DNA from: a virus
Reading direction: 5' to 3' (one strand)
DNA: 64,000 nucleotides
Virus record (IMG/VR): IMGVR_UViG_3300050821_003228
Coordinates: 1 to 64,000 of that record
The notes below the pieces were generated by a model. It was not told where the DNA came from. It did not search any database and worked only from the letters and a program-made list of their open reading frames with translations. This document shows positions 46,003 through 59,018 of this stretch, piece after piece (the first letter of the stretch is position 1; the number at the start of each line of letters is the position of its first letter). A program made the position numbers and the translations under genes.

Positions 46003-46058
46003 TTTTCATAATGATCCTTGAATTGACAAGGTTCTACCGGTTATGATAAACTGGCATT

Positions 46059-46283: not shown

Positions 46284-46475
46284 TTGCTACAAATTTTAAT
46301 AGTTTTAATTGTTGTAGGCGTTTTGTTGTGGTTAGTTAATACATACATCCCGATGGATGGTAAGATTAAGACGATTTTAAATGTTGTAGTAGTCATCTGT
46401 GTTGTTCTTTGGTTATTGAACGTTTTCGGTGTGCTCGGAATGGATGTGCCCGTTCCGCGTGTTCATCGTTATTAA
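46284..46475 (+). CDS. Thivi_2564-like small membrane protein
   Basis: LIVVGVLLWLVNTYIPMD.KIKTILNVVVVI. Confidence 0.75.
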   Translation: MLQILIVLIVVGVLLWLVNTYIPMDGKIKTILNVVVVICVVLWLLNVFGVLGMDVPVPRVHRY

Positions 46476-46477
46476 GG

Positions 46478-46680
46478 TTTTGATGGGAAGTTGGCTTAGA
46501 AGCAGCCATCTTTTAAAGAGTAGCACTGAACGTGGAACCACTTAAAAAATAGGGCACTCAATTTTAAAACCTATTTGATCCTATACAGGCGGTATAGGTT
46601 GAGGACAGTCCCGTATTGAGCGTTTCTCAGGACGGCCATTTGGCCGATAACACTTTTGGCGTAATAGCACACCATCAAAA
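46478..46680 (+). ncRNA. 23S rRNA H43/H44 (L11-binding, GTPase-associated centre)-like RNA with ~137-nt insertion
   Basis: GTTGGCTTAGAAGCAGCCATC.TTTAAAGA and GCGTAATAGC blocks closed by TTTTGATGG/CCATCAAAA. Confidence 0.85.
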
Positions 46681-46687
46681 AGTTTAT

Positions 46688-46775
46688 GCATTGGTTGGGC
46701 TAATGGTAGCCTCGCGCTCTGTAAAAGCGCCTCTCTTAGCGAGAATAGTGAGTTCAATTCTCACCCAATGCACCA
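46688..46775 (+). tRNA. tRNA-Tyr(GTA)
   Basis: GCGCT-CTGTAAA-AGCGC, V-arm, CCA. Confidence 0.9.
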
Positions 46776-57254: not shown

Positions 57255-57330
57255 GGGCTTATAGCTCATTCAGGAGAGCGCCTGTCTTGCAAACAGGAGG
57301 CGACCGGGGCGGAACCGGTTAAGTCCACCA
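57255..57330 (+). tRNA. tRNA-Ala(TGC)
   Basis: G3.U70, CT-TGC-AA, CCA. Confidence 0.9.
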
Positions 57331-58941: not shown

Positions 58942-59018
58942 GGCGAGTTAGTAGCGTAGGACAATACGAGAGGCTCATAACCTCTAAACGGTGCGTGCAA
59001 ATCCACCACTCGCAACCA
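58942..59018 (+). tRNA. initiator-like tRNA-Met(CAT)
   Basis: 1:72 mismatch, AGAGG-CTCATAA-CCTCT. Confidence 0.8.

Follow-up and report, generated by a model that had tools for sequence, protein, structure and literature searches.

The window that we analysed, a stretch of 64,000 nucleotides of viral DNA, belongs to a complete soil-phage genome of 97.8 kb with terminal repeats. It contains 28 tRNA genes identified by ARAGORN, together with a circularly permuted tmRNA gene on the minus strand (7402-7801; Rfam tmRNA_permuted, 65 bits; tag ANTNVLAMSAAAGA). Two further plus-strand features are absent from the ARAGORN list: a tRNA called by Rfam at 57255-57327 (50 bits), and a tRNA-like gene at 58942-59018, with a CAU anticodon loop and a G1-A72 mismatch, whose Rfam tRNA score of 27.2 bits falls just below the threshold of 29 bits. 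Downstream of a tRNA-Phe gene, at positions 46478-46680 of the plus strand, lies the gene for a structured non-coding RNA of 203 nt, a self-closed mimic of the GTPase-associated centre (GAC) of 23S rRNA with an internal insert. The gene for tRNA-Tyr (46688-46775, plus strand) starts 7 nt downstream of this element, the stop codon of an ORF (46473-46475) lies 2 nt ahead of it, and no ORF of the plus strand spans it. The nearest upstream promoter-like site located by a consensus scan is at 46023-46052 (plus strand; TTGACA, an 18-nt spacer and TAAACT with a TG), and no terminator-like site was detected between it and the element, except for the H43 hairpin of the element itself. The complete 97.8-kb genome carries a single copy of the element. 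No homologue of uL11 or of a translational (EF-Tu-type) GTPase was found in this genome; both positive controls of the search worked.

The two ends of the element correspond to the two halves of the GAC (E. coli 1051-1108), one with H43 and the other with H44, split after U1090 and separated by 137 nt. All parts lie on the plus strand. In the 5' half (46482-46521, corresponding to G1051-U1090) the position in the window is the E. coli number plus 45431, which places G1051 at 46482, A1067 at 46498 and U1090 at 46521. Within this half, the 35-nt stretch from G1056 to U1090 (46487-46521, as given by the Rfam LSU alignment) comprises the H43 hairpin with the 1067 loop, the 1082-1086 turn and G1087-U1090; it ends in GAGU and is identical base-for-base to the bacterial consensus of H43 and the following junction. 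The insert and its linker occupy 46522-46658 (137 nt): a variable part of 133 nt (46522-46654), placed after U1090, is followed by UUUG (46655-46658), a linker conserved in the family that separates the insert from G1091. The 3' half (46659-46676) corresponds to G1091-C1108, with A1095 at 46663 and C1108 at 46676. Its 13-nt stretch from G1091 to A1103 (46659-46671), the H44 hairpin with the 1095 loop, reads GCGUAAUAGC followed by ACA. Both the 1067 loop and the 1095 loop are those of the bacterial consensus. The element is closed by a stem whose 5' strand (46478-46486), made of four U and the tip of H42 (1051-1055), has its complement in the last nine nucleotides (46672-46680; 1104-1108 and four A).

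The bacterial LSU rRNA model of Rfam (RF02541) aligned 46486-46526 with its positions 1096-1145, with a score of 23.3 bits (E 2.4e-5). This score stands against a gathering threshold of 50 bits, so that the element does not qualify as a bacterial LSU rRNA gene, and besides the LSU model no Rfam 15 model matched it. The 18-mer corresponding to 1062-1079 occurs once in the window, and shuffled sequences gave 0.05 matches even when 3 mismatches were allowed. An earlier note on this DNA had described two rRNA-like blocks on the plus strand, about 137 nt apart and enclosed by a 9-bp stem; the blocks were recovered, the Rfam alignment and the unique 18-mer exceeding chance, and the distance (46522-46658, 137 nt) and the stem (46478-46486 with 46672-46680) proved correct. 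No other rRNA flanks the element, its neighbours being an ORF and a tRNA, and we agree with the note that the uL11/thiostrepton domain exists here as an independent, self-closed copy within a phage tRNA operon, outside any rRNA gene. Every helix of the GAC secondary structure (the H42 tip, H43, H44 and their three-way junction) can form in the window. The minimum free energy fold of the whole region, in which GAC nucleotides pair with the insert, was set aside because it would break pairs that covary among the relatives described below.

A blastn search with the element against 50,697 phage records revealed matches in unannotated intergenic DNA of five cultured phages. The full split architecture is present in Xanthomonas phage XacN1, Pseudomonas phage Astolliot, Aeromonas phage 4_4572, Ralstonia phage RSP15 and the jumbo Vibrio phage 2.275.O, with inserts of about 110 to 290 nt and with a closing stem of its own in each element. 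With a shorter query, further matches to the 5' block, nearly all of them unannotated, were obtained in Pseudomonas phages pf16, Milchi and UNO-G1W1, in Acinetobacter phage ME3, and in Rak2-like jumbo phages (Cronobacter GAP32, CBB, Serratia BF, several Erwinia pEa_SNUABM phages, Yersinia fHe-Yen9-03 and -04, and Xanthomonas XbC2). Pattern scans of IMG/VR returned 9 loci with both halves 120-150 nt apart, at least 119 loci with the family-specific 3' half and 110 loci with the 5' half. Contiguous rRNA was found in none of 109 matches anchored on the 5' half; the inserts of this sample ranged from 45 to about 340 nt (89 were resolved, the longest being 338 nt). The 3'-half pattern was also detected in 82 bacterial assemblies, mostly MAGs, and both blocks were present in 39 of the 80 loci that were fetched. 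More than 190 loci of the same architecture were thus recovered from IMG/VR, cultured phages and bacterial assemblies, with phages of Proteobacteria, Firmicutes and Bacteroidota all represented. The window element shares the features that define the family, namely a self-closing stem of variable sequence, the GAC core, an insert after U1090, a UUUG or UUUA linker, and G1091.

Matches in Paenibacillus phage Pd_22F and in Staphylococcus records were rejected as members, being ordinary contiguous 23S. In the Pd_22F record (MZ092003.1, 82477-85512), an unannotated stretch of about 3 kb consists of such 23S, possibly host DNA or the product of an assembly error; several short 'phage' records (Staphylococcus, Listeria, Escherichia) also turned out to be pieces of rRNA. 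The GAC-mimic RNA is a large phage RNA family for which we located no prior description: Rfam 15 holds no model of it, and no description was found in a full-text literature search or in the 224-motif survey of Weinberg et al. 2017. Relatives of the phage itself were recovered through Ro60 loci (up to 61% identity) and through a 629-aa protein (58% identity). Among three complete genomes recovered in this way through Ro60 and four partial records, the only match to the element, with 2 mismatches, was on one contig (L306) and was judged spurious. The element is absent from the three complete genomes (Ro60 identity of 61%, 49% and 42%), indicating that it is dispensable, or accessory.

Selection on the fold was analysed on 91 distinct elements aligned in a fixed register with E. 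coli numbering. The recovery patterns fix positions 1091-1104 in the 3'-anchored sample and 1062-1079 in the 5'-anchored one; invariance of these positions in the respective samples is therefore partly due to ascertainment, and only the columns outside each are unbiased. The closing stem covaries at every position, 1051:1108 being for instance AU in 26 elements, GC in 21, UA in 20 and CG in 13. Pairing was observed in 483 of 546 cells, against 136 to 236 when the 3' strand was shifted by 1 or 2 positions. Inside H43, 1058:1080 is paired in 91/91 elements, by all four Watson-Crick types and by wobbles (shuffle mean 38), while 1057:1081 is AU in 82 and CG in 9 and is never mismatched. The tertiary pair 1082:1086 is UA in 51, CG in 26 and AU in 11, and is paired in 88/91 (shuffle mean 54). 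The base triple 1072/(1092-1099) is CCG in 90/91 and UUA in RSP15; the UUA combination appears again in the divergent first copy of phage Astolliot. U1060, A1077, the G1059-C1079 pair and A1088 are invariant, with U1060 and A1088 at 91/91, and the U1060-A1088 pair is hydrogen-bonded by Gly130-Thr131 of L11 (PMC2175356). These sequence patterns indicate that the tertiary contacts of the GAC (1082:1086, the 1072 triple and U1060-A1088) are kept in the phage RNAs. The conservation of the two blocks relative to their flanks, which the earlier note had put forward as a check, is thus found across many phages and is accompanied by covariation.

At the junction, U1090 is present in 91/91 elements and positions 1089-1090 are GU in 90-91 of the 91. 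In 66 distinct members that were retrieved by their 5' half only, the linker before G1091 is UUUG in 52 and UUUA in 7. Position 1101 is A in the family and U in the Rfam consensus, a replacement that would create a U1090-A1101 pair; in the window element, A1101 can indeed pair with U1090. The window carries the majority base of the family at every core position, except at the freely covarying 1058:1080 pair. The exposed bases that contact factors and drugs are less fixed than the structural ones: position 1067 is A in 77/91 elements and G in 12, position 1068 is G in 69/91 and A in 21/91, and position 1095 is C in the first Astolliot copy. Such relaxation fits selection on the fold and on uL11 binding better than selection on factor contact.

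Two proposals of the earlier note fared less well on these data. The insert had been described as closed by an AAGAGT/ACTTTT stem, which is unsupported because A1086 varies together with 1082 (UA, CG, AU) while the 3' linker stays UUUG; C:G at 1082:1086 occurs with a UUUG linker 13 times, and A:U with UUUG twice. Binding of uL10 had also been suggested. In the stalk base of H42, however, positions 1047-1053 and 1106-1112 covary without any constraint on their sequence, the closing stem being, beyond the last H42 pairs, an ordinary Watson-Crick helix. Below 1054/1105 no sequence is conserved in the stem, which therefore lacks the determinants of the uL10 site in H42. RelA, which the note had named as a possible target, is not known to bind the uL11/thiostrepton domain by itself.

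The insert of the window element is predicted by folding to contain four local hairpins (46547-53/46570-76, 46580-86/46592-98, 46617-21/46627-31 and 46633-37/46642-46) and possibly a long-range helix, the ensemble being split between topologies. Its folding energy (-32.3 kcal/mol) is no better than that of shuffled sequences (-28.0 +/- 3.3 kcal/mol, z = -1.3). At the base of the insert, at least 3 consecutive pairs can form in 81/91 elements, with evident covariation, against only 2 in the window (AG with CU). No homologue of the window insert was detected: in the 50,697 phage records, blastn of the element found nothing beyond the H43 block, the matches of a blastn-short comparison with 104 family members did not exceed 13 nt, and a pattern anchored on GUGGAACC retrieved from IMG/VR and metagenome contigs only an unrelated insert class. 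A comparison with the rest of 23S, for which the real rRNA of the Pd_22F record was used, gave only words of 7-13 nt. The insert therefore appears to be a private domain of 133 nt whose structure is a prediction.

Across the family, the inserts fall into unrelated sequence classes carried on an almost invariant handle. Some classes are conserved across unrelated phages: one ends in GACCCUUAGAG, another is marked by CCCGUAA-NUGG-UAAGG, and the sarcin-ricin loop is present in a third. The sarcin-ricin-type hairpin was found in 3/104 distinct elements (L048, L054 and L071), with a GUA-C-GNRA-G-GA core and covarying flanking stems; in these elements the insert is about 300 nt long and the hairpin reads GUACGAGAGGA or GUACGGGAGGA. 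By its motifs, this subclass imitates the factor-binding site in both of its halves. The window insert contains no sarcin-ricin loop. A candidate at 46611-46635, where GUA and GA strands surround an extended hairpin, was rejected, as it has no GNRA loop and its lower stem is pre-empted by a strong CGGCC/GGCCG hairpin. A search of the whole window gave four matches with 3 mismatches, the level expected by chance, two of which correspond to the end of an HNH ORF and to the anticodon arm of a tRNA-like gene.

Other variations of the architecture were observed. In Astolliot (L002:1170-1480), a second and more divergent copy of the GAC mimic lies directly upstream of the other, the tandem copies having different insert classes; the divergent copy has U at 1072, a U1092-A1099 pair and C at 1095. 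About 10% of members (L025, L047, L057, L084, L085, L107, L114, L115 and L124) have a second insertion site in the 3' strand of H43, after GCAGCCA (around A1077/U1078), usually occupied by a hairpin. The junction is purine-rich on its 5' side throughout the family (AAAGAGU, then GGGA, AGAG or GAAUC), and on its 3' side pyrimidines run up to a terminal UUU. A1088 and G1089 might also pair with the U residues of the linker in an alternative, extended helix, so that the RNA might switch between two folds.

The family is strictly associated with tRNA genes of the same orientation. At 165 IMG/VR loci we counted 925 tRNA genes on the strand of the element and 0 on the opposite one, and a same-strand tRNA was found within 30 nt in 66/165 loci. 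The loci from bacterial assemblies gave 203 tRNAs on the same strand versus 0 on the opposite. This context suggests that the element belongs to tRNA transcription units, from which it is probably released by tRNA-processing enzymes. No neighbouring protein family recurs in more than 11 of 166 loci; the largest clusters, each within that limit, were TerD, a weak PspA-like match, the CCA-adding enzyme (9 loci), a P-type ATPase and vWA-TerF. In the window, the distance from the element to a downstream Ro60 gene is 660 nt, and in XacN1 (L001:833-1483) about 15 nt separate the end of an annotated 2'-5' RNA ligase gene from the start of the copy. A loose linkage between the element and genes of RNA repair is possible.

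Judged by conservation and covariation, the element reproduces both the secondary and the tertiary architecture of the uL11/thiostrepton domain, in many unrelated large phages and among their tRNAs. The best explanation that we can offer, held tentatively and with slightly less than even confidence, is that a free GAC fold binds the uL11 protein of the host and forms an off-ribosome imitation of the GTPase-associated centre. The RNA would be transcribed together with the neighbouring tRNAs and small ORFs and freed by tRNA-processing enzymes, cleavage by RNase P at the tRNA-Tyr located 7 nt downstream setting its 3' side. It would then take the fold of the ribosomal site and bind uL11, which would be that of the host because the phage has no uL11 gene. 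The resulting RNA-uL11 particle could pull uL11 or GAC-binding factors off ribosomes, or it could be a stable, uL11-bound handle on which the insert domain is displayed. Since both uL11 and EF-G are abundant, titration would demand the RNA in very large amounts. It is conceivable, though we consider it unlikely, that the free ribonucleoprotein copy (GAC RNA and host uL11, in some members with a sarcin-ricin loop) captures or mis-activates translational GTPases or the stringent-response machinery at a distance from the ribosome. If true, this would represent a new viral route to reprogramming translation control, in which the variable insert tunes what is captured.

The main rival of an off-ribosome mimic binding uL11 is a scaffold carrying a cargo, a possible if somewhat doubtful reading in which the GAC fold, with or without uL11, would serve as a nuclease-resistant, tRNA-like handle, the insert being the functional part and differing from phage to phage. 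In favour of such a scaffold are the unrelated insert classes, of 45 to about 340 nt, that are mounted on a handle with hardly any variation, the conservation of several classes across unrelated phages, the different inserts of the Astolliot tandem and the relaxation of A1067 and G1068. However, a handle does not need an rRNA tertiary fold reproduced down to a base triple, simple helices or tRNA folds being sufficient; the shortest resolved insert, in L052, has 45 nt and is mainly one extended stem, so that some members carry little cargo; and the window insert has no conserved or unusually stable structure. More improbable is a decoy, in which the RNA, with or without uL11, would spare the ribosomes by absorbing an agent directed at the GAC. 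Candidate agents would be defence nucleases of the host, modifying enzymes, toxins and the thiopeptide antibiotics found in soil. We know of no defence enzyme that targets H43/H44, and thus no attacker can be pointed to; a stoichiometric sponge would also be inefficient against a catalytic enzyme. Moreover, a family that is spread over phages of Proteobacteria, Firmicutes and Bacteroidota is more likely to have a universal partner than to answer one particular defence system. In favour of a decoy, the adjoining tRNA genes are of a kind widely read, in large phages, as replacements for damaged host tRNAs, the same phage carries a tmRNA gene, a minority of members add the sarcin-ricin hairpin, a known toxin target, and the copied loops belong to the cleft of thiostrepton, which is made of these two loops and the N-terminal domain of uL11 (PMC2175356).

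We regard as very improbable that the insert is an intron or intervening sequence whose removal after transcription leaves a contiguous or two-piece GAC mimic of 58 nt. The boundary bases are those of group I introns (U1090 on the upstream side in 91/91 elements, and a G at the end of the insert in 79/91), the joined flanks restore GAGU-GCGUAA, the exact consensus of bacterial rRNA, and position 1090 of LSU rRNA is a known site of group I insertion in some eukaryotes. Against this, no group I or group II model matched the window (E <= 10) or five homologues (E <= 1); a group I core (RF00028) is thus not found, and the insert classes have no core in common. Family inserts go down to 45 nt, and those of 45-62 nt are too short for a ribozyme core, 12/91 inserts end in A, and the covarying basal helix (at least 3 pairs in 81/91) resembles an expansion segment and not a P1 with an internal guide. 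The two last possibilities are effectively excluded. One is an inert remnant, a piece of host 23S rDNA captured by a phage, later interrupted by an insertion and devoid of function; real rRNA fragments do occur in phage records, as in Pd_22F and several short records. It is effectively refuted by covariation, with compensatory changes in helices and tertiary contacts in hundreds of independent copies. Against a remnant also speak the individual closing stem of each copy, the family hallmarks that the bacterial rRNA consensus lacks (A1101, the UUUG linker and the insert) and the strict strand bias relative to tRNAs. In addition, the copy of the Aeromonas phage has A1058:U1080 where enterobacterial 23S has U:A, which argues against a recent capture, assuming that Aeromonas 23S is like the enterobacterial one at this place. 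The other is a cis-acting leader that would bind a protein to control a downstream gene. mRNA leaders that imitate rRNA (the L10, L1 and L20 leaders) are an established precedent, but here the next gene is a tRNA at 7 nt, a tRNA directly abuts the element in 66/165 loci, no downstream protein family recurs, and neither L10_leader (RF00557) nor any other ribosomal-protein leader model matched.

A widespread phage RNA reproducing the uL11/thiostrepton domain, base triple included, would add a novel class to the non-coding RNAs of viruses and would represent a new kind of molecular mimicry directed at translation. The mimic is directly testable, because cultured phages carry members of the family. 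It would provide a natural, self-folding version of a classic model system for RNA folding and antibiotic binding, in which the insert tolerated at 1090/1091 is useful for engineering. The family also explains a recurrent unannotated gap in phage tRNA clusters.

The phage element and the 58-nt uL11/thiostrepton domain of 23S rRNA share the same three-way junction, the same loop sequences and tertiary contacts that are supported by covariation or invariance. The phage element differs in lying outside an rRNA gene, in a phage tRNA operon, with a variable closing stem of its own; it is split after U1090 by 137 nt ending in UUUG, has A1101 for the consensus U, and across the family keeps A1067 and G1068 less strictly. 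To our knowledge, rRNA domains have not been described as free-standing genes. Like the leaders of ribosomal-protein operons (L10_leader, RF00557, or the L1 site in the L11 operon mRNA), the element is an off-ribosome copy of the binding site of a protein on rRNA. These leaders, however, are cellular, act in cis, precede the ribosomal-protein genes that they control and copy a local motif, not a whole tertiary domain, whereas the phage element abuts tRNA genes and is not followed by a ribosomal-protein gene. Pseudo-ToxI of phage PhiTE is similarly a phage non-coding RNA that imitates a host RNA so as to occupy its protein partner (PMC3475682). It reproduces, in one phage lineage, a small antitoxin repeat that belongs to one defence system, unlike the GAC mimic, whose model is a universal domain of the ribosome and whose carriers are phages of many bacterial phyla. 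Finally, tmRNA, the Y-like RNAs of Ro60 and the manA-type RNAs occupy the same niche in phage tRNA clusters, on the same strand and presumably with the same processing; they have no relation in sequence or structure to the GAC mimic, which is distinguished from all of them by copying a domain of rRNA.
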